Virus record (IMG/VR): IMGVR_UViG_3300029647_000066
Reading direction: 5' to 3' (one strand)
Length of the DNA: 12,210 nucleotides
From: a virus
Lineage: Duplodnaviria; Heunggongvirae; Uroviricota; Caudoviricetes
Below are positions 1 to 12,210 of the stretch, one piece after another (within the stretch, counting starts at the first letter, position 1; every line of letters begins with the position of its first letter). The notes under the pieces are model-generated. The model was not told where the DNA came from, did not search any database, and saw nothing but the letters and a program-made list of their open reading frames with translations. Made by a program: the position numbers and the translations under genes.

Positions 1-166
1 AAAGGTGATAAAGCGAATACCTGGGCCGTCTACGGTTCCACAGGATTCAAAGGAGTGAATGCGACCAATAACTGACTTGGTAGCCCCCGCCGCAGCGGTA
101 TTTTCTGTTGTATTACAATTAGTTAAATTACTCATATCGCTTCAATTGGCTCTAGTTAACTCTGGT

Positions 167-1162
167 TTATGGACGCATTATGGACATTCCTGACACCGGG
201 TTAAGAGTCACAGCATCTTGTAAGAAATCCGGTGCAAAGTGTGCGTAGGTCATAGTTTGCTGAATGTTAGAATGACCCAGGATGCGCTGCAATGTGATTA
301 TGTTACCTCCATTCATTATAAAATGTGTGGCAAATGTATGCCTCAAAACATGCACTGCCTGTCCGTCAGGTAAATCGGGTTTTACTTCCCTGAGAGCGTT
401 GCGCACTTTGTAGTAACTGGCATTAAAAAGCCTGCCAGAATTTTTGGTTTTGATCCGTTTAATCAAGTCCTGCGAAACGGGAATTGTCCTGCGCTTTCCG
501 TTTTTAGTTTTCATAAACGTAACCATCTGGTTAATGATGTGTTCAGCTTTTAAATTAGACACTTCACTCCAGCGTCCACCAGTAGAAAGGCAGACCAGAG
601 TCGCATTTAATTCATCACCATCAAGCATGGATAACAGTCGCGTAATCTCTTCACTGGACAAAAAAGCCATTTCTGTAACAGCTTCACGTAACCGCTTAAC
701 CTCACGGAACGGGTTGTGAGAGTGGTATTCACCGGCGTCAATTAACTTGGTGAACATCCCGCTCATTATTGCCAGATGCCGATTTACGCTGGCTGGTTTT
801 AGACCATCGTTCATCATTACAACGCGATAATCAGTTATCGTTTTCTTTGTTAGCTGGTCAGCTCTGGACACTCCCATTTCTGCAAATTTGGCGATTATTG
901 TCGTTAAACGCCCCCGTTCAATATCTCCACGCTCATGTGATTTTCCGTGATATATCCACCATCTGCCTAACAACTCTGTAAGAGTTCGGCGGTCGGCTGG
1001 TTTCTCCAGCCACTCTTTGTTGTGGTAGTTAACCAGTACATGACGTCCGAATGCTTGAGCTTCACCTTTAGTTTTAAATTTCCGCCTGATACGTTTTCCA
1101 TCTGCACCCTGCGGTCTGACGTCCACTTCATAACGACCATCATCGAGCTTTTTAATAGACAT
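167..1162 (-). CDS. int: Tyrosine integrase, P2-family
   Basis: 331-aa ORF with ATG at 1162 preceded by GGAGGG. N-terminus MSIKKLDDGRYEVD and C-terminal HxLRHTFATH, ITLQRILGH and TYAHFAP motifs are typical of P2/186-type integrases. Same strand as, and downstream of, the C repressor as in P2. Confidence 0.9.
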   Translation of the reverse strand: MSIKKLDDGRYEVDVRPQGADGKRIRRKFKTKGEAQAFGRHVLVNYHNKEWLEKPADRRTLTELLGRWWIYHGKSHERGDIERGRLTTIIAKFAEMGVSRADQLTKKTITDYRVVMMNDGLKPASVNRHLAIMSGMFTKLIDAGEYHSHNPFREVKRLREAVTEMAFLSSEEITRLLSMLDGDELNATLVCLSTGGRWSEVSNLKAEHIINQMVTFMKTKNGKRRTIPVSQDLIKRIKTKNSGRLFNASYYKVRNALREVKPDLPDGQAVHVLRHTFATHFIMNGGNIITLQRILGHSNIQQTMTYAHFAPDFLQDAVTLNPVSGMSIMRP

Positions 1163-1255
1163 AAAGCCCTCCGATGACGCTGTTTACTTCTACTACTTGA
1201 AAATTAATGCAATTTTCTTTCGTACATTTACTACACACATATGCTGAATAAATCG

Positions 1256-1555
1256 TCAGCCAGTTTTCTGGTCTGAGTGGTGCAAGGTTGTTGAGTCTTG
1301 CCCAATGTGTGCGAGAGCCGGGGCTATTTGTCCAGCTGCTGGATCTGTTTCATCAAACATGAACCAGTCACGATACTTGCGAAAGCGTGGATGCTTAAAC
1401 AGCTTCATACCTGCTTCCATAGGCATTTTTGATTTTCCTGATTCATATCCATGATATGTGTAGTAATTAATTCCAATTAATTCAGCAAGTTCCTTAGTTT
1501 TAAGGCGTTCGGATTCACGGATGAGCTTTAGTTTTTCACTTTGTTCACTTGACAT
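1256..1555 (-). CDS. C: Immunity repressor, P2 C-type (HTH)
   Basis: The ORF track begins at a TTG at 1573; the first ATG is at 1555 and gives 99 aa. HTH segment LKTKELAELIGINYYTYHGYESGKS and the C-terminal GQIAPALAHIGQ motif match my recollection of P2 C. Divergent from the cox-like gene. Confidence 0.8.
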   Translation of the reverse strand: MSSEQSEKLKLIRESERLKTKELAELIGINYYTYHGYESGKSKMPMEAGMKLFKHPRFRKYRDWFMFDETDPAAGQIAPALAHIGQDSTTLHHSDQKTG

Positions 1556-1648
1556 AATTTTGCTAATCTCCAATTATATTGCTACTTGGCAATTTGTGAT
1601 TCACTCAAAAAGGCTCTAGAAGGCTCCAGTTGGTGAATCGCAAATCTT
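1556..1648. promoter_or_regulatory. Lysis/lysogeny switch region with divergent promoters and candidate operator repeats
   Basis: Intergenic region between divergent C and cox-like genes. Direct repeat AGGCTC at 1611-1616 and 1621-1626 (10-bp periodicity), flanked by an imperfect inverted pair GTGATTCAC (1596-1604) and GTGAATCGC (1633-1641). Exact -35/-10 elements not resolved. Confidence 0.5.
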
Positions 1649-2020
1649 ATGGAGGATAGCAAAGTGACGACAAATGTAGAAATTTCTTGTCCAACTAGCG
1701 ATGAGGCAAGTTTCGAAAATGAAGCCAAACGTAAAAGCATTCAGATTTCAGAGCGCCCATCTGATTTGCTGTCGAAAGAAGGTTTTGCTCTTTACATCGG
1801 TAAGACACCACGCGCGGTGGCTGAAATGGCTAAAGCAGGAAAGCTGCCAGCCTTCTACATGACAGACCCATTAAAACCAAGAGGGAAAGCTGAATTATGG
1901 ATTAATCGCCGTGAGTGGGACAAGTACGCAGCCCAACTGGTTGATGAAGCTCCGACAGAATGGCATGACTGGAAAAATCGCATTAGTTACAGCAAATCAA
2001 GACATGGCCGTGCGGCTTAA
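1649..2020 (+). CDS. cox: Cox-like excisionase / early-promoter regulator
   Basis: First gene of the rightward operon, divergent from C. Segment GFALYIGKTPRAVAEMAKAGKLPAFYMTDP resembles the Cox/AlpA-type HTH region. Start uncertain: an in-frame GTG at 1664 has a better-placed GGAGGA than the ATG at 1649. Confidence 0.7.
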   Translation: MEDSKVTTNVEISCPTSDEASFENEAKRKSIQISERPSDLLSKEGFALYIGKTPRAVAEMAKAGKLPAFYMTDPLKPRGKAELWINRREWDKYAAQLVDEAPTEWHDWKNRISYSKSRHGRAA

Positions 2021-2030
2021 GGTGGAAAGG

Positions 2031-2201
2031 ATGAACGAGCCTCGTTGTATTGCTCAGTTATTGCGTAACGAAAGCCCCAGGGCGATTGACTTCACCATCA
2101 CCCACGGAAAGGGTCGCAAGGGAATCATTATCCGCACCAAAAAACAGAGTCCGTTAAAAAAGGTTCTGACCTTTCTGAAAAGCCGGAGGGTATGGAAATG
2201 A
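2031..2201 (+). CDS. Small hypothetical early protein (P2 orf78 position)
   Basis: 57-aa ORF with ATG at 2031 after GGTGGAAAGG. Its stop overlaps the next start as ATGA (2198-2201), suggesting translational coupling. No recognisable domain. Confidence 0.4.
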   Translation: MNEPRCIAQLLRNESPRAIDFTITHGKGRKGIIIRTKKQSPLKKVLTFLKSRRVWK

Positions 2202-2698
2202 CAGTGATGACGCTCAATCTCGTTGAAAAACAGCCAACAACTATGCGCCGGATAATTGGTAAGCATCTGGCCGTCCCTCGCTGGCAGGAGACATGCGATT
2301 ATTATAATCAGATGATGGAACGCGAACGGTTAACGGTTTGCTTCCATGCGCAGTTAAAACAACGTCACGCAACGATGCGTTTTGAAGAAATGAACGACGT
2401 CGAACGTGAACGGCTGGTTTGTGCAATTGATGAACTGCGCGGGGCATTCTCAAAACGCCGTCAGGTCGGTGCAAGTGAGTATGCATATATTAGTTTTTTA
2501 ACAGTCAGTCAGCGTCGTACTTTATTTATGCATGCGGGATTGACAGAAAAAGAATTCAATCAGCCGTACTGGCGCATTAATGAAGAATCATGTTACTGGC
2601 GTGATGCTTTATTCCGTGCATTACGTGAATTATTCAGTCTGTTTGAGTATGCACCGACAATTCTGACGTCGGTAAAACCAGAGCAATATCTGCATTAA
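2198..2698 (+). CDS. Early replication-associated protein, assigned by position to the P2 gene B slot
   Basis: 166-aa ORF with ATG at 2198 seven nt after GGAGGG (the ATG at 2192 is too close to the SD). Same position and length as P2 B. Sequence similarity to B was not verified. Confidence 0.6.
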   Translation: MTVMTLNLVEKQPTTMRRIIGKHLAVPRWQETCDYYNQMMERERLTVCFHAQLKQRHATMRFEEMNDVERERLVCAIDELRGAFSKRRQVGASEYAYISFLTVSQRRTLFMHAGLTEKEFNQPYWRINEESCYWRDALFRALRELFSLFEYAPTILTSVKPEQYLH

Positions 2699-2761
2699 GT
2701 AATTAACCCGAGTTTTTAACGCACTTAATTGTGCGGGGCTTCTTTTTGCCTGGAGAAAGTC

Positions 2762-2986
2762 ATGCATACAGTTTCTGAAAATCAGTGCGGTAAATACGCA
2801 TTACTGCTGCAACAGGCCAGAACCGAAGCACAGGCCGACGCAGCGACGCGCTTCTCTTCTCATCTTGACGCCATGATTCGCCACATCACAAAGGCGGAGT
2901 TATCCCGCGTGGAGATAGTCGAGCTGCTCAGTCAGGAGTCGGAAAAATTTCACAATATCGGATTATCTCGCGGGGAGGTGCTTTGA
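2762..2986 (+). CDS. Small hypothetical early protein (P2 orf80 position)
   Basis: ORF track starts at a TTG at 2729; ATG at 2762 follows GGAGAAAG. 74 aa. Stop overlaps the next start (TGATG). Confidence 0.55.
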
Positions 2987-3288
2987 TGTCCTGTTCTCAT
3001 TCAGTTGTATTACTGAATAACGCCTTAAAAATCGCCGTTATGAAAAATGGCGATTTGTCTCTTATTCAGCTTGGTCTTGATAAAGAAAAACGCGAAATAA
3101 CTGAATCTGTTATCGCGATTTATCAGAACGAATTAAACCTCCTGTCTGATGTGGTCAATTTACTTGTGAAACGCGCTGTATTTAACAAGCAAATCTCCTC
3201 CGTGGATGAACTGACGAAATTAACGACAGAAATCGCCAGCTATTGCGCTGATGAATTTAAGAAGCTGAACGACAAAAGGAGCTGGTAA
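2986..3288 (+). CDS. Small hypothetical early protein (P2 orf81 position)
   Basis: ATG at 2986 seven nt after GGGGAGG. 100 aa. Stop overlaps the next start (TAATG). Confidence 0.6.
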   Translation: MSCSHSVVLLNNALKIAVMKNGDLSLIQLGLDKEKREITESVIAIYQNELNLLSDVVNLLVKRAVFNKQISSVDELTKLTTEIASYCADEFKKLNDKRSW

Positions 3289-3512
3289 TGCCGGACAACG
3301 TAGATTTTATTCAGGAACAACAGGCTGAATTACTGGAGCGCCAGATTAACGCGGCAAGGGTAAAACATTGCGGTGTTTCTGCGCTGGTTTGCGAAGAGTG
3401 TGACGCGCCAATACCTGCTGCCCGTCGTGCGGCTTATCCGTCAGCCACGCGTTGTGTTTCCTGTCAGTCAGTCTTTGAAGCAAAAAACAAACATTACCGG
3501 AGAATGGCATGA
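3288..3512 (+). CDS. TraR/DksA-family C4 zinc-finger protein (P2 orf82 position)
   Basis: 74 aa with CEEC...17 residues...CVSC, the C-x2-C-x17-C-x2-C spacing of TraR/DksA zinc fingers. AAAGGAG six nt upstream of the ATG. Translationally coupled on both sides. Confidence 0.75.
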   Translation: MPDNVDFIQEQQAELLERQINAARVKHCGVSALVCEECDAPIPAARRAAYPSATRCVSCQSVFEAKNKHYRRMA

Positions 3513-3784
3513 GCATTCGTATTGAAATTGGCGAACGTTATGTCGTTACCAGTGACAGCTTTCAGTTTATTCTCCACGAGAAAAAGAGAGCGGAAAGCGG
3601 TAAAAACGCCGGTCAGGAATGGCTGTCGGTGGTTGGTTATTACCCGAAATTAAGCCAGCTCGTTTCCGGCCTGATGCATCACGATATTCTGACCGGAAGC
3701 GCAAAGTCTTTTGCTGATTTAAACGCGCAGGTTGAGCAACTCAGCAGGCGTTGTTCAGAGGCTTTTGGCTCATATGGCCGTTAA
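3509..3784 (+). CDS. Small hypothetical early protein (P2 orf83 position)
   Basis: 91-aa ORF with ATG at 3509 overlapping the previous stop (ATGA). Its 3' end overlaps the gene A start by 11 nt. Confidence 0.6.
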   Translation: MSIRIEIGERYVVTSDSFQFILHEKKRAESGKNAGQEWLSVVGYYPKLSQLVSGLMHHDILTGSAKSFADLNAQVEQLSRRCSEAFGSYGR

Positions 3785-6059
3785 AGCCTCCGGGCGTTTT
3801 GTCCCTCCGTCAGCATTTGCCGCAGGCACCGGTAAGGCGTTTACCGGTGCTTATGCATGGAACGCGCCACGCGAGGCTGTCGGGCGCGAAAGACCCCTTA
3901 CACGTGACGAGATGCGTCAGGTGCAAGGTGTTTTATCCACGATTAACCGCCTGCCTTACTTTTTGCGCTCGCTGTTTACCTCACGCTATGACTACATCCG
4001 GCGCAATAAAAGCCCGGTGCACGGGTTTTATTTCCTCACATCCACTTTTCAGCGTCGTTTATGGCCGCGCATTGAGCGCGTGAATCAGCGCCATGAAATG
4101 AACACCGACGCGTCGTTGCTGTTTCTGGCAGAGCGTGACCATTATGCGCGTCTGCCGGGGGTGAATGACAAGGAACTGAAAAAGTTTGCCGCCCGTATCT
4201 CATCGCAGCTTTTCATGATGTATGAGGAACTCTGCGATGCATGGGTTGATGCACATGGCGAGAAAGAATCGCTGTTTACGGATGAGGCTCAGGCGCATCT
4301 GTATGGTCATGTTGCTGGCGCTGCACGAGCTTTCAATATTTCCCCTCTCTACTGGAAAAAATACCGTAAAGGACAGATGACCACGAGGCAGGCATATTCT
4401 GCCATTGCCCGTCTGTTTAACGATGAGTGGTGGATTCATCAGCTTAAAGGTCAGCGTATGCGCTGGCATGAGGCGTTACTGATTGCTGTCGGGGAGGTGA
4501 ATAAAGACCGTTCTCCTTATGCCAGTAAACATGCCATTCGTGATGTGCGTGCACGCCGCCAGGCAAATCTGGAATTTCTTAAATCGTGTGACCTTGAAAA
4601 CAGGGAAACCGGCGAGCGCATCGACCTTATCAGTAAGGTGATGGGCAGTATTTCTAATCCTGAAATTCGCCGGATGGAGCTGATGAACACCATTGCCGGT
4701 ATTGAGCGTTACGCCGCCGCAGAGGGTGATGTGGGGATGTTTATCACGCTGACCGCGCCGTCAAAGTATCACCCGACACGTCAGGTCGGAAAAGGCGAAA
4801 GTAAAACCGTCCAGCTAAATCACGGCTGGAACGATGAGGCATTTAATCCAAAGGATGCGCAGCGTTATCTCTGCCGTATCTGGAGCCTGATGCGCACGGC
4901 ATTCAAGGATAATGATTTACAGGTCTACGGTTTGCGTGTCGTCGAGCCACACCACGACGGAACGCCGCACTGGCATATGATGCTTTTTTGTAATCCACGC
5001 CAGCGTAACCAGATTATCGAAATCATGCGTCGCTATGCGCTCAAAGAGGATGGCGACGAAAGAGGAGCCGCGCGAAACCGTTTTCAGGCAAAACACCTTA
5101 ACCGGGGCGGTGCTGCGGGGTATATCGCGAAATACATCTCAAAAAACATCGATGGCTATGCACTGGATGGTCAGCTCGATAACGATACCGGCAGACCGCT
5201 GAAAGACACTGCTGCGGCTGTTACCGCATGGGCGTCAACGTGGCGCATCCCACAATTTAAAACGGTTGGTCTGCCGACAATGGGGGCTTACCGTGAACTA
5301 CGCAAATTGCCTCGCGGCGTCAGCATTGCTGATGAGTTTGACGAACGCGTTGAGGCTGCACGTGCCGCCGCAGACAGTGGTGATTTTGCGTTGTATATCA
5401 GCGCGCAGGGTGGGGCAAATGTTCCGCGTGATTGTCAGACTGTCAGGGTTGCCCGTAGTCCGTCGGATGACGTTAACGAGTACGAGGAAGAAGTCGAGAG
5501 AGTGGTCGGCATTTACGCGCCGCATCTCGGCGCGCGTCATATTCATATCACCAGAACGACGGACTGGCGCATTGTGCCGAAAGTTCCGGTCGTTGAGCCT
5601 TTGACTTTAAAAAGCGGCATCGCCGCGCCTCGGAGTCCTGTCAATAACTGTGGAAAGCTCACCGGTGGTGATACTTCGTTACCGGCTCCCACACCTTCTG
5701 AGCACGCCGCAGCCGTGCTTAATCTGGTTGATGACGGTGTTATCGAATGGAATGACCCGGAGGTCGTGAGGGCGCTCAGGGGCGCATTAAAACACGGCCT
5801 GAGAACACCAAACCGTCAGCAAAGAAACGGAAGCCCGTTAAAACCGAATGAAATAGCGCCATCGGCCAGGCTGACCCGGTCGGAGCGTATGCAAATTACC
5901 CGTATCCGCGTTGACCTTGCTCAGAACGGTATCAGGCCGCAGCGATGGGAGCTTGAGGCGCTGGCGCGTGGCGCGACCGTAAATTATGACGGGAAAAAAT
6001 TCACGTATCCGGTCGCTGATGAGTGGCCGGGATTCTCAACAGTAATGGAGTGGAAATGA
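3774..6059 (+). CDS. A: Rolling-circle replication initiator endonuclease, P2 gene A family
   Basis: ORF track starts at 3732, but the internal ATG at 3774 (MAVKASGRF) gives 761 aa and avoids a long overlap with the upstream gene. HUH-type motif in GLRVVEPHHDGTPHWHMMLF and paired-tyrosine motif in AAGYIAKYISKNIDGY are hallmarks of phiX174/P2 A-type initiators. Confidence 0.9.
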   Translation: MAVKASGRFVPPSAFAAGTGKAFTGAYAWNAPREAVGRERPLTRDEMRQVQGVLSTINRLPYFLRSLFTSRYDYIRRNKSPVHGFYFLTSTFQRRLWPRIERVNQRHEMNTDASLLFLAERDHYARLPGVNDKELKKFAARISSQLFMMYEELCDAWVDAHGEKESLFTDEAQAHLYGHVAGAARAFNISPLYWKKYRKGQMTTRQAYSAIARLFNDEWWIHQLKGQRMRWHEALLIAVGEVNKDRSPYASKHAIRDVRARRQANLEFLKSCDLENRETGERIDLISKVMGSISNPEIRRMELMNTIAGIERYAAAEGDVGMFITLTAPSKYHPTRQVGKGESKTVQLNHGWNDEAFNPKDAQRYLCRIWSLMRTAFKDNDLQVYGLRVVEPHHDGTPHWHMMLFCNPRQRNQIIEIMRRYALKEDGDERGAARNRFQAKHLNRGGAAGYIAKYISKNIDGYALDGQLDNDTGRPLKDTAAAVTAWASTWRIPQFKTVGLPTMGAYRELRKLPRGVSIADEFDERVEAARAAADSGDFALYISAQGGANVPRDCQTVRVARSPSDDVNEYEEEVERVVGIYAPHLGARHIHITRTTDWRIVPKVPVVEPLTLKSGIAAPRSPVNNCGKLTGGDTSLPAPTPSEHAAAVLNLVDDGVIEWNDPEVVRALRGALKHGLRTPNRQQRNGSPLKPNEIAPSARLTRSERMQITRIRVDLAQNGIRPQRWELEALARGATVNYDGKKFTYPVADEWPGFSTVMEWK

Positions 6060-6511
6060 TGGCAAAAATTCACGAGGTAAAGCTGCACGCAAAATATTTT
6101 GACCTTGTGCTGGAAGGAAAGAAACGCGCAGAGTTTCGGAAAAATGACCGTAATTATGAGCGCGGGGACACGTTGATTTTGCATGAATGGGTGCAGGGTG
6201 TGTATACGGGGCGAAAGGTTGAAGCCCGGATAACAGATGTTACTGACTTGTCAGACTGGCTGGAAGATTATGTCTTGCTAAGTATTGAGCTGCTTAATAC
6301 AGGCGCATATGAGTTTGTGAACTGGAAAGAACTTAGTGAGCGTGGTCTGGTATTCAGAATTAATCATGAAATTATGCATCAGCTCGGCCTTGCTGTTGTG
6401 TATGAACCAGAGACGGGGATGTCTGGCGGGGCAGTGGTTGGTGCGGATGGGATATGGAACTATTCAGATGAACAGGTGGAGCGTGCACAGCAAAACGGGT
6501 GGCTTGGATAA
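6056..6511 (+). CDS. ASCH / DUF3850-like domain protein
   Basis: ORF track starts at a GTG at 6023; the ATG at 6056 overlaps the A stop (ATGA) and follows GGAG. N-terminal KIHEVKLHAKYFDLVLEGKKRAEFRKNDRNYERGDTLILHEW fits the DUF3850/ASCH pattern common in phage genomes. C-terminal half uncharacterised. Confidence 0.7.
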   Translation: MMAKIHEVKLHAKYFDLVLEGKKRAEFRKNDRNYERGDTLILHEWVQGVYTGRKVEARITDVTDLSDWLEDYVLLSIELLNTGAYEFVNWKELSERGLVFRINHEIMHQLGLAVVYEPETGMSGGAVVGADGIWNYSDEQVERAQQNGWLG

Positions 6512-6717
6512 TGCACAGAATACCAGGCGAGATACCGCAGCATAAAACTAAAAATATCAAGCTGATGGCCATTGTTCACCGTCTACAGCAGATTATGGTC
6601 AACGAAAATCTGACGCCCGATGAGCTGGTCGGGTGTGCCGAAATAGTCCGGGATAATTACGTATGGCTTAACTATATCGGTCAGCCCAGCGCTGCACCGC
6701 CACCACGCAGACGATAG
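6511..6717 (+). CDS. Small hypothetical protein
   Basis: ORF track starts at a GTG at 6499; the ATG at 6511 overlaps the previous stop (TAATG). 68 aa, no recognisable domain. Last ORF before the compositional shift to AT-rich DNA. Confidence 0.4.
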   Translation: MHRIPGEIPQHKTKNIKLMAIVHRLQQIMVNENLTPDELVGCAEIVRDNYVWLNYIGQPSAAPPPRRR

Positions 6718-7025
6718 AGAACGCAGCCAGCTCAGGATTGGCGGGGGATAGAATAACGAGCATAGTGATGCGATTAGACAAACAGACTGACTGGTACACT
6801 TAGGATGGTTATAGTGGTTTCTAAGTGCTTTAGCGATACATCTGGTGGACTGTTTTACCAACCTCAGAGTTAGCTGAATTTTTAACAAAATACCATTTTG
6901 ATAGATTTGCCTAATTTATTAATTAAACTATACTGGACTTATACACAGTGTTCTGTTAATTGTTAGGTTGGTAAGATATTGTGAGGAGGTGATTACTATC
7001 TTGGCATCAATCAAGTGGAGGTTAA

Positions 7026-7262
7026 ATGATGAATATATTTGAACGTATTATAGGTAAAGCTGCTATTGAAAAGGAAAGAGAACTGGCGAGGAGGCTTGAA
7101 GCATCTGGAACAAACACTGTTGAGGTGGTAGGTCGAGGCGCGATTATCACGTCTAAAGAAGACTTGGCAAGCTCAGATACAGTAAAATTGATGAAAATTA
7201 AAGCAAGAAAAATAGTTTCTGAGCAGGTAAAGCAAGAAGAAAAAATGGCTAAAGGGAATTAA
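7026..7262 (+). CDS. Small charged hypothetical protein, first gene of the rightward cargo operon
   Basis: 78-aa ORF, Lys/Glu-rich and probably helical. GGAGG at 7017-7021 four nt before the ATG. AT-rich codon usage unlike the backbone. The next gene starts 3 nt after its stop. Confidence 0.6.
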   Translation: MMNIFERIIGKAAIEKERELARRLEASGTNTVEVVGRGAIITSKEDLASSDTVKLMKIKARKIVSEQVKQEEKMAKGN

Positions 7263-7264
7263 TA

Positions 7265-8026
7265 ATGTTTGCTTTATTAATTATTCCATTACTTGTGAGT
7301 GGTTATATTGTATTAACCACTCATCCTTATCATTTCTATAGATTACACCGTTATGATGGGCAGTTGTTATATATGAAGTCAGCCGCCTTTGGTCTGTGGT
7401 GTTTTATATGGACATTGATTATAGCTTACTTAATAAAATGGATATGTCCTAGCTTCCATCCTGTCACGATGGTTCGGGAACAATTAGATCTCAAACTTAG
7501 TGACAATGGTACTGAAAGAATCATAGGATGGATGATTTTACTTTCATGTGGAACGATATTTTTGGCTTGGATATGGAGTGTCGGTGCTAGATATTTGGTT
7601 ATATATAGAGCTAAAATTATAAATTATATCCAAGGGGTAAAGGCTGCCAATATTGATTATGAGAATCTTGTCATGCTAAGGATGAGGCAAGAGCTTATTA
7701 ATGATAATCCAATGGATGAAATATTTTTTGATTCGTTAGTTGATAGACGTTCAATACTTATTACGTTGCAAAATAAAAAGACATATGTAGGAATTGTTAA
7801 CGCATTAGGTGAGCCTAACGAGAAAGAAGGACCTAACCAGTATGTTTCAATCTATCCTATTATCTCTGGGTATAGAGATAAGGATTCATTGAAAGTAATC
7901 TTGGTGAATGAATATAGAGAGCTTGAGGATGCTGATACTAGTATCATCTTTCCACTAAAAGAAATTTCGCAAGTTTCTTGGTTTGATATGGATATTCATA
8001 AAATAGTTGAAAATAATAAGGTGTAG
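7265..8026 (+). CDS. Predicted integral membrane protein (about 3 TM helices N-terminal, soluble C-terminal domain), function unknown
   Basis: 253-aa ORF with AAGGGA seven nt before the ATG. Hydrophobic segments FALLIIPLLVSGYIVL, AAFGLWCFIWTLIIAYLIKWI and IIGWMILLSCGTIFLAWIWSVGA, followed by a hydrophilic domain of about 130 aa. AT-rich. Ends just before a hairpin shared with the convergent operon. Confidence 0.7.
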   Translation: MFALLIIPLLVSGYIVLTTHPYHFYRLHRYDGQLLYMKSAAFGLWCFIWTLIIAYLIKWICPSFHPVTMVREQLDLKLSDNGTERIIGWMILLSCGTIFLAWIWSVGARYLVIYRAKIINYIQGVKAANIDYENLVMLRMRQELINDNPMDEIFFDSLVDRRSILITLQNKKTYVGIVNALGEPNEKEGPNQYVSIYPIISGYRDKDSLKVILVNEYRELEDADTSIIFPLKEISQVSWFDMDIHKIVENNKV

Positions 8027-8029
8027 TAA

Positions 8030-8054
8030 ATGGTCACCTATAAAAGGTGACCAT
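8030..8054. terminator. Bidirectional hairpin terminator between the convergent cargo operons
   Basis: Perfect 10-bp inverted repeat ATGGTCACCT (8030-8039) and AGGTGACCAT (8045-8054) with a 5-nt loop. It sits between the stop of the + gene (8026) and the stop of the - gene (8060), with T-rich sequence downstream on the + strand and A-rich sequence upstream. Confidence 0.6.
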
Positions 8055-8059
8055 AATGC

Positions 8060-10324
8060 TTATTTTTGACGAATCCTGATTTTTGGTTGTTCACGAACAA
8101 CAATATCAGTTTCTTTCCAACCAAGATTATTTATTTCAACCTCGGCTTCGTTGTAGACTGTAGTAGAATTGGCAAGAGATCTTAACGTAATAGCCAATAC
8201 AGCACGTTGAGGTGAAGATAGAGGCTCTTGCTCTGCTCGTCTCTGAACATCAAGTTTAAGTCTCCATTGCTCCCCATTTATACCTTGCGGAAATTGTTTT
8301 CTATAAACTTTGACTGGAGACCATTTGAAGCCATTTTCTATCAGTACCTTTTCAAATAATTCACTCTTTTCTTTTATTTGTGGAATTTTTCCGCTATGTA
8401 TCCATTTAGCGTTAACTGGATCATAAGTGTAAGTCCCGAATGACACATCCACATTAGAACGGCAATATTCAGATGGGTAGTCATAATCAAGCGGTGGAGA
8501 ATAAACGAGTGTCATAATAATTTCACCTGTGAATTTTCCATCCTCAGTACGTAATGACTGTGGTATTACAAATGGCGTTCTACTGAATTCAATACCTTCT
8601 CGGGTATCTATTTCAAATAGAAATGTAATCTCATTTTTATTGCAACCAATAATATCATTTATATGATCGCTTGGGCGTCCAAATCCTTGATAATTAAACG
8701 CATAATGCTCCGTTTTGGCTGGTGAGTTTTTTAACGCAGAATGAATTAATAGTGCCTTGATACGTTCAGGCGATGGTGAAATAGAACCATTAACATCTAG
8801 TTCATGCCACAGTGATGCCGCTAAACTTGAGATTAACGGTGCTGATAAACTTGTGCCAATACTTTCGCAAAGAGCATTGTCCTCGCCAATAGCTATGATT
8901 CCGGTATGTTCACAGTTTAATTTACTGTCACAATTACCTCCAAAGTGATTTATCTCTGGTTTGGGTATAAAGGCTGGGCCGGGACCTCTTCTAGAAAAAG
9001 ATGAAGGTTCAAATCTTTTGACCACAGAGTCAGACGATTCTAAATGGGCAACTGAGCCAACAGTTAATGAACGAACAGAATCTGCGGGGGCTGATATTCT
9101 GTCATGCCCACCTAATTCTTGAGGAGGCCAGGTTCGTTGAGGATCATAAATGTAGTTGCCGGATGCTACGACGAAAAGACAATCATGCTCATCATGAAGT
9201 GCATTTAAAAAATGCCCCAATTCAGAGAAGCTGTCTTCAGAACATGGGGATTGACAACCTAATGACAGATTCCATACACGTACTTCTGGATAGGTGGTCA
9301 CAGCCTCTCGGATAGCTTTCATTAATTGTGGCAATTTGAGCGTACCATCTTTGGGAAAGGCTGCAACATCAACAATTTCAGCTTGGCATTGAGGAAAACC
9401 AGCATAGTTATTCAACCATCTTCCATTAATTGCTAAACTTGCAACCATGTTCCCATGAGAATAGTCGTGTTCTCCTTTTACTAAATCTAAACTATCCCAA
9501 ATCCATGGCCTAAGTATGTTGTTATTGGGATCGACTCCGCTATCTATAATTCCGAGTAGTGGATAATGTTTATCCTCTTGAGGTAAGGGAAAATCATCTA
9601 GGTCTAGAGTTTCAGCAGGAATATATTGCGATACTGTATGAGTAAGACCAAATGTTGGCATAGGTTCTAATTTTCGTATGCCAATAAAACTTGCCAGTTG
9701 GGCGATGTTATCATTCCCTTTTACTTCATATATACTCAAATCTGAACTGATATCATACTTTTTGGGTTTTTGTATTCCTAGTTCATCTGCAAATTCCATT
9801 AATTCTTTGTCGATACTGCGGTTAGTTGTTCTATCTTTATGGTCAAAGAGTTTCAGAAGAAAACTATCTGATTTATTTTTATCTATAACATCATGGTTAA
9901 GACTAAAAGGTTCGATCTTTTCAATTACAGCAATATGTACTGTCCCATTATGAGAATTAGTGCTATTTTCAATTTTTTTGCGAAGTTGTGCTAACCCTTT
10001 TTCAGTAACACTTATAAGTAATTCTCCAAAATTATCACTGCCTATTACGGGACATGTATTATCACCTAATAGGCTTGATGGGCGATGTGACTTAGCAAGA
10101 GCTTTTTCATGAAGAGTAACTCTAGCCACCGCCGGTATATTGGGCCATTTTTTAAATGAGCTCTGGAAAAAATTTTTAACGTCATCGACTTCTTGTTTGA
10201 GTCTATTTTTTAGACTAGTTGTTACTGTTCGGATAGGTTGTTTCTTTCCGAAATTATATGTTTTTTCAGTAAAATCTTGAGGTGTCGCCTCAATTATTTT
10301 TATTGGTCTTTCTTTGTTACTCAT
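8060..10324 (-). CDS. Subtilisin-like serine peptidase (S8 family), predicted cytoplasmic, with N- and C-terminal extension domains
   Basis: 754-aa ORF. S8 catalytic motifs in canonical order: Asp in LLGIIDSGVD (about residue 261), His in DYSHGNMVASLA (about 290), oxyanion Asn in FVVASGNY (about 390), Ser in GTSLSAPLISSLAASL (about 492). No N-terminal hydrophobic signal sequence. Its ATG overlaps the stop of the upstream ATPase gene (ATGA at 10321-10324). Confidence 0.9.
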   Translation of the reverse strand: MSNKERPIKIIEATPQDFTEKTYNFGKKQPIRTVTTSLKNRLKQEVDDVKNFFQSSFKKWPNIPAVARVTLHEKALAKSHRPSSLLGDNTCPVIGSDNFGELLISVTEKGLAQLRKKIENSTNSHNGTVHIAVIEKIEPFSLNHDVIDKNKSDSFLLKLFDHKDRTTNRSIDKELMEFADELGIQKPKKYDISSDLSIYEVKGNDNIAQLASFIGIRKLEPMPTFGLTHTVSQYIPAETLDLDDFPLPQEDKHYPLLGIIDSGVDPNNNILRPWIWDSLDLVKGEHDYSHGNMVASLAINGRWLNNYAGFPQCQAEIVDVAAFPKDGTLKLPQLMKAIREAVTTYPEVRVWNLSLGCQSPCSEDSFSELGHFLNALHDEHDCLFVVASGNYIYDPQRTWPPQELGGHDRISAPADSVRSLTVGSVAHLESSDSVVKRFEPSSFSRRGPGPAFIPKPEINHFGGNCDSKLNCEHTGIIAIGEDNALCESIGTSLSAPLISSLAASLWHELDVNGSISPSPERIKALLIHSALKNSPAKTEHYAFNYQGFGRPSDHINDIIGCNKNEITFLFEIDTREGIEFSRTPFVIPQSLRTEDGKFTGEIIMTLVYSPPLDYDYPSEYCRSNVDVSFGTYTYDPVNAKWIHSGKIPQIKEKSELFEKVLIENGFKWSPVKVYRKQFPQGINGEQWRLKLDVQRRAEQEPLSSPQRAVLAITLRSLANSTTVYNEAEVEINNLGWKETDIVVREQPKIRIRQK

Positions 10325-11484
10325 AATATCTCTCTATAGTTCTTAGTTAGCCTTGACACTTTAGCATTTGAAAGCCCTAGTATTTTTGCTATCTTTCGTA
10401 TTGTAAATCTTTTGGGATTGTATTCTCTGAGAGTGGTCACAATCTTTATAAGTAAATTATCTTCTTCATCAAATGTAACTCCCTTCGCTTCTAAGATAGC
10501 CTCGACTAAAAATCGGGTATCGATTTGTTTATTATTGTAAACCAGAGCATGTCGCTCAGATCTTAAGCAGCATTGTTCTATAAATGAGCAGTTTAGCCCT
10601 GATGATATTTCCGCAAGGTCATCAACAAAATCGTCATATGTAGCTTTTATGTTTGAATATTGTTCAAATAGTTGTTTTCTGACTTCAAAATCAGGCAATC
10701 CAATAGATATTCTATACTCAAAGCGCCTCCAAACTGCGCTATCTAGAAGATTTTCATGATTACTTGCAGCAATCAATATTGTTTCTTCAGGTAGATTGTC
10801 AATATTTTGCAATAAAGAAACCACCACCCTCTTCAGTTCACCTAACTCATGCTGATCATCTCTAGCCTTTGCTAGAGAATCTAGTTCATCTAGAAATAAA
10901 ACACATGGTGCTTTACTTGCATACTCAAATAGCTGCCTGATATTTTTAGAAGTAGACCCCAGATATGATGAGACTAAGGAGTCACATCTTGCAGTAAGAA
11001 GCGGTAAATTTAGACAGGATGCAATATATTTTGATGTCAAGGTTTTACCACAACCTGGTGGCCCATATAAAATCATAGAGGATGTCACGCCAAGACCGGC
11101 ATCCTTTAATTCTTTAGCTCGTTCAGTGAAAGTCAAAAATTCTTTAATTTTTTTCAGAGTGCTATCTTTCAACAATGGGAGTTGAATTTCAGAAGACGGT
11201 TGAGTTACGTCTGCTAAATCAAATTTAGTTTCTTTATCTACAGGTAATGTATCAAGACGTTCAAAAATAGGTGATGTACTGCGTGATACTTTCTGCAAGT
11301 TAAACGTGTTTTTATCTTGAATACTACCTCTAATGGCTGAAGCAAGCTCAGGCAGCCCCATAGAATCATAGGAACGCGCGAGTTTCGAAGCCTGCCGAAC
11401 AAAAGCAACTTTATCCCCTTTGAGTCCAAGACTGATAAGCTGCGAAAGTATCTCGTTTGTGGTCATTTGTGATACAAACCTCAT
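10321..11484 (-). CDS. AAA+ ATPase (classic-clade AAA domain) with C-terminal HTH-like tail
   Basis: 387-aa ORF. Walker A in LYGPPGCGKT (about residue 147), Walker B in CVLFLDELD (about 199-200), second-region-of-homology-like segment in AASNHENLLDSAVWRRFEYRISIGLP. C-terminal RKIAKILGLSNAKVSRLTKNY resembles a helix-turn-helix. First gene of the leftward cargo operon; start could instead be the second ATG at 11466. Confidence 0.9.
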   Translation of the reverse strand: MRFVSQMTTNEILSQLISLGLKGDKVAFVRQASKLARSYDSMGLPELASAIRGSIQDKNTFNLQKVSRSTSPIFERLDTLPVDKETKFDLADVTQPSSEIQLPLLKDSTLKKIKEFLTFTERAKELKDAGLGVTSSMILYGPPGCGKTLTSKYIASCLNLPLLTARCDSLVSSYLGSTSKNIRQLFEYASKAPCVLFLDELDSLAKARDDQHELGELKRVVVSLLQNIDNLPEETILIAASNHENLLDSAVWRRFEYRISIGLPDFEVRKQLFEQYSNIKATYDDFVDDLAEISSGLNCSFIEQCCLRSERHALVYNNKQIDTRFLVEAILEAKGVTFDEEDNLLIKIVTTLREYNPKRFTIRKIAKILGLSNAKVSRLTKNYREIL

Positions 11485-11725
11485 TAATCTGTTGTCTAAA
11501 TGGCTTATAGGTGAGACAAATTTCTATTTTAATGTAGTTTATATGTATTTTGGTGAAACGAACACTATGTTTTACATAAATCTTTCAGGTTTGGAGTTCT
11601 TGGAGGGCATAGAGTTGCATCAATTTGCATTCTAATTAGACTTTTTTATTGCTATCGTATTCTACATGTGACTAGGTCTGCCCTTCCTGATGCGTTTGCA
11701 TTAAAACCTCCCCATGAAGCGGGCG

Positions 11726-11744
11726 GGCGAGGCGGGGAAAGCAC
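11726..11744 (+). other. cos site (P2-type 19-nt cohesive end)
   Basis: GGCGAGGCGGGGAAAGCAC is present exactly and matches the P2 cohesive-end sequence as I recall it. It lies in a GC-rich block just after the cargo island, where the P2 map places cos (after the tin/old slot). Confidence 0.6.
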
Positions 11745-11883
11745 TGCGCGCTGGCGGTGGTGCTGATTTTATTTTTTCAGCGTCTGAGCGCGTCTTGATG
11801 GCGTTTAGATTGTGCGCCGGGGCGTTGGTGTGTCTGCGGGGTGTTTTGTGCGGTGGTGAGCGTGTGAGGGCGTGATGACGGGG

Positions 11884-11908
11884 TGTAAAAAAGCCGCCCG
11901 CAGGCGGC
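11884..11908 (-). terminator. Rho-independent terminator for the leftward transcript ending near cos
   Basis: GC hairpin GCCGCC (11893-11898) and GGCGGC (11903-11908) with loop CGCA. On the minus strand it is followed by a run of six T (plus-strand AAAAAA at 11886-11891). It sits 5 nt downstream of the stop of the minus-strand ORF ending at 11914. Confidence 0.5.
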
Positions 11909-11913
11909 GATGT

Positions 11914-12126
11914 TCAGCCGTTGTCAGTGTCCAGTGAGTAGTTTTTAAAGCGGATGACCTCCTGGCCGAGCCAGCCGTTTATTTCCCGAATCCTGTCCTG
12001 TAACGGGATAAGTTCATTGCGGACAAAGACCTTTGCCACTTTCTCAATATCACCCAGCGACCCGACGTTCTCCGGCTTGCCGCCCATCAACTGAAAGGGG
12101 ATGCGGTGCGCGTTGCGTATTTTCAT
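11914..12126 (-). CDS. Hypothetical 70-aa protein, last ORF of a leftward transcription unit next to cos; may be a fragment of a larger late gene
   Basis: Complete ORF by ATG and stop, but with no Shine-Dalgarno and an in-frame stop 3 codons upstream. Backbone-like GC content and followed by a terminator. In P2 the leftward portal gene ends near cos, so this could be the 3' portion of an interrupted portal-like gene. Not verifiable here. Confidence 0.35.
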   Translation of the reverse strand: MKIRNAHRIPFQLMGGKPENVGSLGDIEKVAKVFVRNELIPLQDRIREINGWLGQEVIRFKNYSLDTDNG

Positions 12127-12210
12127 GAAAGGAGATCACTCAATAACTTCCATCGAGATCGGGTAATAACATTTGAACAGATCGCTGAATAACATCGATG
12201 GAGATCACTT

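Follow-up and report, generated by a model that had tools for sequence, protein, structure and literature searches.

P2-like phages have their principal hotspot for defence genes in the interval between gpA and gpQ (Rousset et al. 2022, PMC9122126; Moura de Sousa et al. 2026 preprint). In reference P2 (NC_001895) the stretch from gpA to cos/gpQ harbors orf91, tin and old. The turnover of hotspot cargo is otherwise reported to be very rapid (preprint 10.64898/2026.02.27.708500). A second system of relevance is IetAS, also known as Gao_Iet (NCBI name IteAS), which includes the ietAS genes of plasmid pTiC58 and a homologous pair on SGI1. It was originally reported as a plasmid toxin-antitoxin system in which a protease is the toxin and an ATPase the antitoxin (PMC13069673, PMC5006074). 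Anti-phage defence by IetAS needs the protease activity, by a mechanism that "remains unknown" (PMC13069673; PMC5006074); for the Bacillus IetAS, abortive infection set off by a phage protein has been described (preprint 10.1101/2022.08.27.505566). In the related ietHAS system (Liu-DS4; PMC13069673), IetAS is joined by an essential SNF2-like helicase. Here we describe an IetAS-like locus in a viral sequence of 12,210 nucleotides (nt) from the IMG/VR database (record IMGVR_UViG_3300029647_000066, Caudoviricetes), whose full length is referred to as the window. The window contains the early/right arm of a P2-like (Peduovirus) prophage, interrupted by an AT-rich island (6730-11725) with four genes: ietA and ietS on one strand, orf78 and orf253 on the other.

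We consider it very probable that a P2-like prophage of Escherichia coli acquired the island as a whole horizontally, as swappable cargo of its defence hotspot between gpA and cos/gpQ. Its position, its conserved flanks and the variability of its content are those of hotspot cargo; protection of the lysogen by this cargo is suggested by the homology to IetAS.

Composition and boundaries of the island

The island consists of the four-gene cassette and two non-coding leaders. A first-pass annotation, made from the letters of the sequence, had described a sharp drop to AT-rich composition from about 6720 to 11650, to be checked by sliding-window and codon-usage analysis. Both analyses recover the discontinuity. 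The G+C content (GC) of the island is 0.366, as compared to 0.523 from gpA to orf68 (3732-6717) and 0.575 from cos to Q (11726-12113). In a sliding window, GC lies at 0.51-0.57 over positions 3600-6600, at 0.32-0.44 from ~6800 to ~11600, and then rises up to 0.53. In non-overlapping 200-bp windows, the GC of the island is significantly below that of the backbone, both for the backbone as a whole (Mann-Whitney p = 5e-9) and for its adjacent part (p = 2e-7). At third codon positions, the GC (GC3) is 0.25-0.30 for the four island genes, as compared to 0.47-0.55 for gpA, the DUF3850 gene and orf68.

An unbiased two-breakpoint segmentation has its best fit at 6751-11650, very close to the first-pass coordinates, and homology breaks at 6730 with respect to the closest P2-like phages and at 11697 with respect to reference P2. 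The right edge of the first-pass annotation, at 11650, is better placed at ~11697-11725. No direct repeats bound the island, so that neither transposition nor site-specific insertion is indicated; this is consistent with cargo being exchanged by recombination in the flanks rather than by transposition.

The P2 backbone is itself heterogeneous, with a GC of ~0.38 in the C/cox region as well, and the block might be regarded as a compositional fluctuation, or as decayed DNA that lacks functional genes. This explanation is refuted by several observations, and we assign it a negligible probability: four long intact open reading frames (ORFs) make up 88% of the block, every catalytic motif is present, the block is 99.5-99.7% identical across 12 genomes, protein conservation reaches 55% identity in other genera, and both composition tests give the low p values above.

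Conserved flanks and hotspot position

Megablast against 50,697 phage records shows P2-like phages that match the window at 95-97% identity over 58-6730 and again over ~11743-12113, and not a single record with a match from 6730 to ~11743. Counted by record, 99 match the backbone and 0 the cargo. Homology to reference P2 comprises 2017-6279 and 11697-11744, the former spanning the end of cox, P2 orf78 (a gene distinct from the island gene of that name), B, orf80-83, A and half of orf91. The left flank is built around replication gene A (3774-6059, + strand), which encodes a nicking endonuclease, is annotated in the matching phage records as "nicking at origin of replication", and shows 96.9% DNA identity to P2 A across 2017-6279. 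Gene A is followed by two small ORFs. The first (6059-6511, +) is orf91-like, the semi-conserved first gene of the hotspot, with Pfam matches to DUF3850 (7.8e-18), ASCH (6.9e-11) and DUF7415 (4e-13) and with RefSeq coordinates carried over from locus L097; the second (orf68; 6511-6717, +; phrog_11386, 1e-39) encodes a hypothetical protein of 68-72 amino acids (aa) and is the last gene common to the closest P2-like phages, whose backbone matches continue past it to 6730. On the right side, the final 19 nt of the block 11697-11744 are the exact P2 cohesive-end sequence GGCGAGGCGGGGAAAGCAC (11726-11744, +), identical to the annotated cosR of NC_001895, and start the right backbone flank. The proposed arrangement, with P2-like backbone on both sides and the island after gene A and two small ORFs and before cos, is thus confirmed, and the slot is the one that P2 uses for tin and old. 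Neither gene is present: when P2 Tin and Old were compared to the window by tblastn and to the island proteins by blastp, no homologue was found (best E = 0.099), in agreement with the proposed replacement of tin/old.

Within 5426 complete E. coli genomes, the flanks occur in 2157 and the cargo in only 12, at 99.5-99.7% identity. Alignment with P2-like relatives therefore yields conserved flanks and variable cargo, and the four genes are not backbone conserved in all P2-like phages. Together with the presence of IetAS, a recognised antiviral family, and with the published hotspot (PMC9122126), these counts support the earlier assignment to a variable antiviral hotspot. The island resembles the P2 old/tin locus in that it occupies the interval after A and the orf91-like genes and before cos and Q, consists of AT-rich swappable cargo, and is partly transcribed leftward from the cos side, as is old-tin. 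It differs in its lack of Tin/Old homology, in its two convergent operons, and in its size of ~5.0 kb, as compared to an average of 3.2 kb reported for P2 hotspots (PMC9122126).

Gene content and operon layout

The island harbors four genes in two convergent operons, as first annotated: the rightward operon orf78-orf253 (7026-7262 and 7265-8026, +) and the leftward operon ietA-ietS (10321-11484 and 8060-10324, -). There are no further ORFs of at least 100 aa in the island, and no Rfam family is found anywhere in the window. The two convergent stop codons are separated by 33 bp, and between them lies a hairpin (8030-8054) with a 10-bp stem, a 5-nt loop and a predicted energy of -19 kcal/mol, which is a candidate bidirectional intrinsic terminator. 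In the diverged cassettes L017, L020, L013, L109 and L103 (see below), the equivalent place is occupied by a hairpin whose sequence is unrelated; the shared terminator that had been predicted is therefore a conserved feature of the cassette, and it probably acts in both directions.

Both operons are preceded by 240-300 bp of AT-rich non-coding DNA. The rightward leader (6730-7025, +) is characterised by consensus matches only, the best promoter-like site being TTGCCT-16-TATACT at 6907-6934, and a GGAGG ribosome-binding site precedes the ATG of orf78. The leftward leader (11485-11725, -) contains a single promoter-like match (8 of 12 positions) and has no homology to the old-tin promoter region of P2 until 11697. 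The two leaders share no word of 9 nt or more that could be a common operator. Hence, of the promoter regions assigned to each operon in the first-pass annotation, the leaders are present, whereas promoter signals do not stand out from chance (see Discussion); own promoters for both operons are plausible from this layout. A perfect 10-bp inverted repeat, TTACCAACCT / AGGTTGGTAA (6855-6864 / 6965-6974), flanks the promoter-like site 6907-6934 upstream of orf78 and may be a pair of operators.

The leftward operon

The leftward operon is, by homology, a member of the recognised anti-phage family IetAS. The gene ietS (8060-10324, -) encodes an S8 (subtilisin-like) serine protease of 754 aa, the putative toxin/effector. 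Its product matches the PADLOC model PDLC02197 over nearly the full length (1e-273, 908 bits; residues 1-747 on model positions 1-747 of 749) and Pfam Peptidase_S8 (6.7e-24), and it retains D261, H290, N390 and S492 of the subtilases, which are invariant in the IetS alignment. The gene ietA (10321-11484, -) encodes a classic-clade AAA+ ATPase of 387 aa, the putative antitoxin/regulator; the RefSeq annotation starts at 11466 (381 aa). IetA matches PADLOC model PDLC02196 (9e-132, 438 bits; residues 9-382 on model positions 3-370 of 374) and Pfam AAA (1e-31). Its motifs comprise Walker A (GPPGCGKT, 141-148), the pore loop (YLG, 174-176), Walker B (FLDELD, 197-202) and the arginines 253/254. A C-terminal segment (359-379) resembles a helix-turn-helix (HTH), and the protein is labelled "AAA/HTH_50" in Table S5A of Rousset et al. 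The stop codon of ietA and the start codon of ietS overlap by 4 nt. In NCBIfam, the best matches of the two proteins are IteS (782 bits) and IteA (387 bits), respectively. A sequence search of the Protein Data Bank (PDB) identified the D2 rings of the VAT/p97/Cdc48 unfoldases as the closest solved relatives of IetA (E 2e-50), and no solved relative of IetS or IetA beyond the generic subtilisin and AAA+ cores.

The likeness to described IetAS systems hence consists of the order of two overlapping genes, full-length matches to hidden Markov models (HMMs), an intact protease triad and intact AAA+ motifs, and residence on mobile elements. Compared to most IetS proteins, the island IetS is at most 45% identical and represents a divergent enterobacterial branch. 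Canonical IetAS lacks the orf78-orf253 pair, whereas the branch found here has the convergent pair in all sampled cases. A profile scan of viral contigs with the IetS alignment returned seven loci, all close relatives; the breadth of the IetS sampling came from protein searches and contig look-ups.

The ietHAS system is comparable in having a stable extra component that modulates toxicity or defence. Its helicase is absent from the island, as no island protein has a helicase domain; instead, the opposite strand encodes a soluble protein of small size and an Sm-like membrane protein, with a leader region of their own, and a functional dependence between these and ietAS would be hypothetical. 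The island was tested for three described identities, namely tin/old, ietHAS and 2TM-1TM-TIR, and corresponds to none of them.

The rightward operon

The first gene of the rightward operon, orf78 (7026-7262, +; phrog_37504, 3e-53), encodes a small soluble protein with a predicted arrangement of helix, beta-hairpin (VEVVGRGAII) and helix. The second, orf253 (7265-8026, +), starts 2 nt past the orf78 stop codon. Its product is a predicted inner-membrane protein with three transmembrane (TM) helices, corresponding to hydrophobic segments at residues ~1-20, 39-64 and 85-108, and a C-terminal beta-barrel. In the predicted monomer model, residues ~160-240 have the Sm/LSm/Hfq-like fold, a five-stranded bent barrel after a helix, and the positive-inside rule would place this barrel in the cytoplasm. 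Foldseek searches against BFVD and PDB re-found the Sm fold only and no full-length analogue. Sm/LSm/Hfq barrels and the ligand-sensing WYL domains of the defence regulators BrxR, CapW and DriD are similar in fold, at only 8-18% identity to the orf253 barrel; unlike these, the orf253 barrel is tethered to three TM helices and has no DNA-binding domain attached.

An exhaustive HMMER search assigns 2574 cluster representatives to the orf253 family (E <= 1e-3), and the top 150 are all 200-350 aa long without domain fusions. Scanning one genome per species yielded 179 loci, mostly in Gamma- and Betaproteobacteria. In 77 of 79 loci, the big gene is directly preceded by a same-strand ORF of 55-90 aa, the spacing between the two ranging from -65 nt (overlap) to +13 nt (gap); in ~70 of 77 loci an upstream small ORF lies within 30 nt of the big gene. 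An iterative HMM search found 60 of the small ORFs to be homologous to orf78, with the motif (K/R)VVGRGT...D..E. Since a homologous small ORF abuts the big gene across loci, the unit is, as judged from these sequences, a conserved and translationally coupled gene pair.

The pair is found on several kinds of mobile DNA. It adjoins int/attP in Cronobacter phage phiES15 and in prophages of E. coli and Klebsiella; it is located in the P2-type hotspot of the Salmonella phages SEN4 and SEN5 and, beside bSEFIR, in that of Klebsiella phage ST15-OXA48phi14.1; and it occurs on IncC plasmids. Flanking genes include integrases, gpA and terminase, and there are single matches each to PD-Lambda-4, JetD, CBASS cyclase, AbiLi, PARIS AriA, SoFic and DpdF. 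The survey covered one ORF per flank and gives a rough indication of enrichment in mobile and defence genes, with no statistic attached. An identity of the pair with the 2TM-1TM-TIR system of Rousset et al. was considered and rejected: the TIR neighbour of the distant homologue in Klebsiella phage ST15-OXA48phi14.1 is bSEFIR, and the pair has no PADLOC match. In PADLOC-DB v2, orf78, orf253 and three phage-borne homologue pairs all have zero matches at E <= 0.01.

The pair resembles two-gene abortive-infection or toxin-antitoxin modules with a membrane effector in the layout of its operon, in being small, and in its location in prophage morons, plasmids and defence hotspots. It differs from the catalogued modules of this kind in having no detectable homology to them (PADLOC, Pfam, NCBIfam). 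Architecture and genomic context make a second self-contained module that benefits the prophage, of the abortive-infection or exclusion type, the most likely reading of the pair, which we hold with low confidence. A different possibility is that the pair does not act against phages, and instead serves as a toxin-antitoxin (addiction) module that acts at the membrane and stabilises either the cassette or the element carrying it, or provides a lysogenic-conversion or superinfection-exclusion membrane function unrelated to abortive infection. A layout common in toxin-antitoxin loci is a small gene coupled to that of a membrane protein downstream; conjugative IncC plasmids and prophage ends beside integrases are places where stabilisation and conversion genes occur; many family members have housekeeping genes as neighbours; and the missing PADLOC match is in line with such a role as well. 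Against this stand the recurrence of the pair in documented defence hotspots near bSEFIR, IetAS, PARIS AriA, CBASS cyclase and others, and the lack of any detected sequence similarity to known toxin-antitoxin families. We consider a role outside phage defence unlikely.

Three groups of homologues are of additional interest. On the Salmonella IncC plasmid pSTY1-2010K-1587 (L118, 2872-5789), a homologous pair of 68 and 262 aa with 33% identity is located directly downstream of a 547-aa AAA-family ATPase and adjoins a mer operon, in a setting found on conjugative IncC plasmids; 26 Salmonella plasmid records match, and the ATPase is a possible alternative partner of the pair. In ~13 species of Pseudomonas (L052-L069, P. 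fluorescens group), the pair follows the same ORF of ~650 aa (located upstream of it at ~5170-7120) at a fixed distance, which may reflect a conserved chromosomal neighbourhood rather than mobile cargo. In Arsenophonus (L019, L021 and L083) the big gene is cut to 36-93 aa, the small ORF is kept, and no remnant of IetAS was detected; these copies look like pseudogenes in reduced symbiont genomes.

Linkage of the pair with IetAS

Both modules occur on their own. IetAS is absent at 77 of 80 species-level pair loci, and IetAS relatives of at most 56% identity lack the pair; the latter include two metagenomic contigs, an Acinetobacter island and another genome, a canonical iteAS in an E. coli integrative conjugative element, and the "AAA/HTH_50 + Peptidase_S8" entries in the table of Rousset et al. 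By comparison, every sampled IetS that is at least 58% identical to that of the window is accompanied by the pair; the layout is convergent as in the window, and the 24-37 bp that separate the two modules contain a hairpin. At least 13 distinct linked cassettes were found (window, L017, L018/L102, L020, L013/14, L103, L109/114/115, L116, L117, L119, L122, L123, and the cases of IetS and pair on the same contig in Pectobacterium and Rahnella), located in at least five kinds of mobile element. The four-gene cassette occurs in P2-like prophages of E. coli, Enterobacter bugandensis, Citrobacter youngae and Scandinavium; in P2/186-like prophages of Yersinia enterocolitica; in a Salmonella / Citrobacter island with a P4-type integrase and AlpA; in an integrase island of Providencia rettgeri; in an element with ParB/RepB and a recombinase on a contig from a Logan sequencing run; in a lambdoid Rac-like prophage of E. 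coli; and in Enterobacter cloacae and a metagenomic genome. Pairwise identity matrices of the four proteins correlate with r = 0.98-0.99 over three deep lineages of 55-64% identity. The two modules, autonomous elsewhere, are inherited and transferred as one block in this enterobacterial lineage.

The Rac-like case deserves a separate remark. In E. coli NRZ103545 (L119, NZ_OZ501623.1, 2849-7346) a lineage-B cassette of ~67% DNA identity has the replication gene ydaV on one side and a block of the hok/nin region on the other, and the cassette therefore moves between unrelated types of phage.

This linkage can be explained in two ways. We slightly favour two independent systems that moved as a block, because the operons are convergent, the leaders share no regulatory motif, IetA and IetS have an unchanged architecture, and each module is autonomous elsewhere. 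An alternative to which we assign a lower, still appreciable probability is that the four genes form one system, a distinct subtype of IetAS in which the small protein and the membrane Sm-like protein serve as accessory sensor, regulator or membrane effector, comparable to the helicase of ietHAS. The same convergent layout with every sampled IetS of at least 58% identity speaks for a single system, as does the co-divergence of the four proteins. P2-like hotspots, a lambdoid prophage, islands with P4-type integrases and a ParB/RepB element all contain the block, and since hotspot cargo is otherwise reported to turn over very rapidly, its persistence across element types favours a four-gene system; there is also the precedent of IetAS recruiting an essential accessory gene (PMC13069673). 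A single system is less easily reconciled with operons that are convergent and not co-transcribed, with leaders that have no motif of at least 9 nt in common, with IetA and IetS proteins that show neither loss nor gain of domains relative to their stand-alone relatives, and with the autonomy of each module in most lineages. Moreover, the co-divergence derives from only three deep lineages, and block transfer of neighbouring independent systems predicts the same correlation.

Further features of the window

The orf91-like gene combines ASCH/DUF3850 with an additional DUF7415 C-terminal part. Homology to reference P2 stops inside this gene, at 6279, and the left boundary of the hotspot therefore depends on the P2-like phage that is used for comparison. 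Downstream of cos, the window contains the 3' end of the portal gene Q (11914-12113, -), annotated as "phage portal protein" in matching genomes; backbone homology ends at 12113. Q is interrupted by a copy of the IS21-family insertion sequence ISEc12, the end of which is located at 12102-12210, outside the island. E. coli genomes contain this sequence in several copies (median of 3), and in E. coli BCE-1 the same junction is annotated as ISEc12 istA/istB flanked by two portal fragments, in a prophage with different hotspot cargo. With ISEc12 inserted in Q, the prophage in the source genome is probably packaging-defective. An identical island is found in E. coli E302 (L097, NZ_AP022362.1, 3691-8560), where ISEc12 interrupts gene A and several late genes are frameshifted. 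The island thus persists in decaying P2-like prophages, E302 being one example.

Discussion

We note that several observations weigh against our interpretation of the island as defence cargo with two modules. For the operons, promoter-like sites are no more frequent than expected by chance (19, as compared to 18 +/- 4 in shuffled sequence), and the best of them matches 9 of 12 positions. The NCBIfam scores of both leftward proteins fall short of the equivalog cut-offs (782 < 900 for IteS, 387 < 510 for IteA), and PGAP accordingly annotates no more than an "S8 family peptidase" and an "AAA family ATPase". The low scores reflect no failure of homology: the two proteins belong to a divergent branch of the IetAS family. 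Defence by abortive infection, and toxicity of IetS without IetA, are extrapolated to this allele from its relatives. As for the pair, the AlphaFold2 (AF2) model of orf78 is poor (predicted local distance difference test, pLDDT, of 55) and too low in quality for a fold search. Both proteins are without a Pfam, PADLOC or NCBIfam match, save for a sub-threshold match to STM3941, and belong only to PHROGs of unknown function. Any function of the pair, including defence, is argued from its architecture and context, and this context includes the housekeeping neighbours mentioned above. Finally, strict co-inheritance is explained by one system of four genes nearly as well as by two independent modules.

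The characterised homologues and the intact motifs suggest how the IetAS system of the island might work. IetA would form a hexameric AAA+ unfoldase similar to Cdc48/VAT that restrains the toxic IetS. A phage protein made during infection would interfere with this restraint and release IetS, in analogy to the Bacillus system, and proteolysis by the freed IetS would then arrest or kill the infected lysogen before a competing phage completes its cycle. For the pair, the membrane domain of orf253 could be the effector and its Sm-like barrel a part for oligomerisation or ligand sensing, with orf78 as regulator or antitoxin of orf253.

The hotspot phenomenon, the IetAS family and the exact gene arrangement are already known. 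Table S5A of Rousset et al. has a row that reads [quoted passage not shown] (PMC9122126), and its accessions are the RefSeq proteins of the island. In our literature search, the RefSeq accessions of the island proteins were absent from main texts and appeared only in this supplement. Neither the orf78/orf253 family nor its invariant linkage to one clade of IetAS is described in the literature searched. As far as this search extends, the new part is therefore the uncharacterised orf78-orf253 pair and its linkage to IetAS.

A more far-reaching idea, which we put forward tentatively and consider less probable than not, is that the pair constitutes a new and widespread anti-phage or exclusion module (~2,600 clusters) that in enterobacteria is functionally integrated with IetAS to give a four-gene, membrane-linked subtype. 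Two couplings are possible: proteolysis by IetS may gate the membrane protein, or an Sm-like ring may sense infection at the membrane and free IetS from IetA.

The island is a textbook case of the P2 defence hotspot, and its initial detection indicates that a reading of sequence alone can recognise such cargo. A lineage in which IetAS is never separated from a membrane module provides a handle on the trigger or the target of the protease. The pair family itself is large, unannotated and present in the cargo of prophages, plasmids and hotspots across Proteobacteria, and is a candidate for a new defence or exclusion module.

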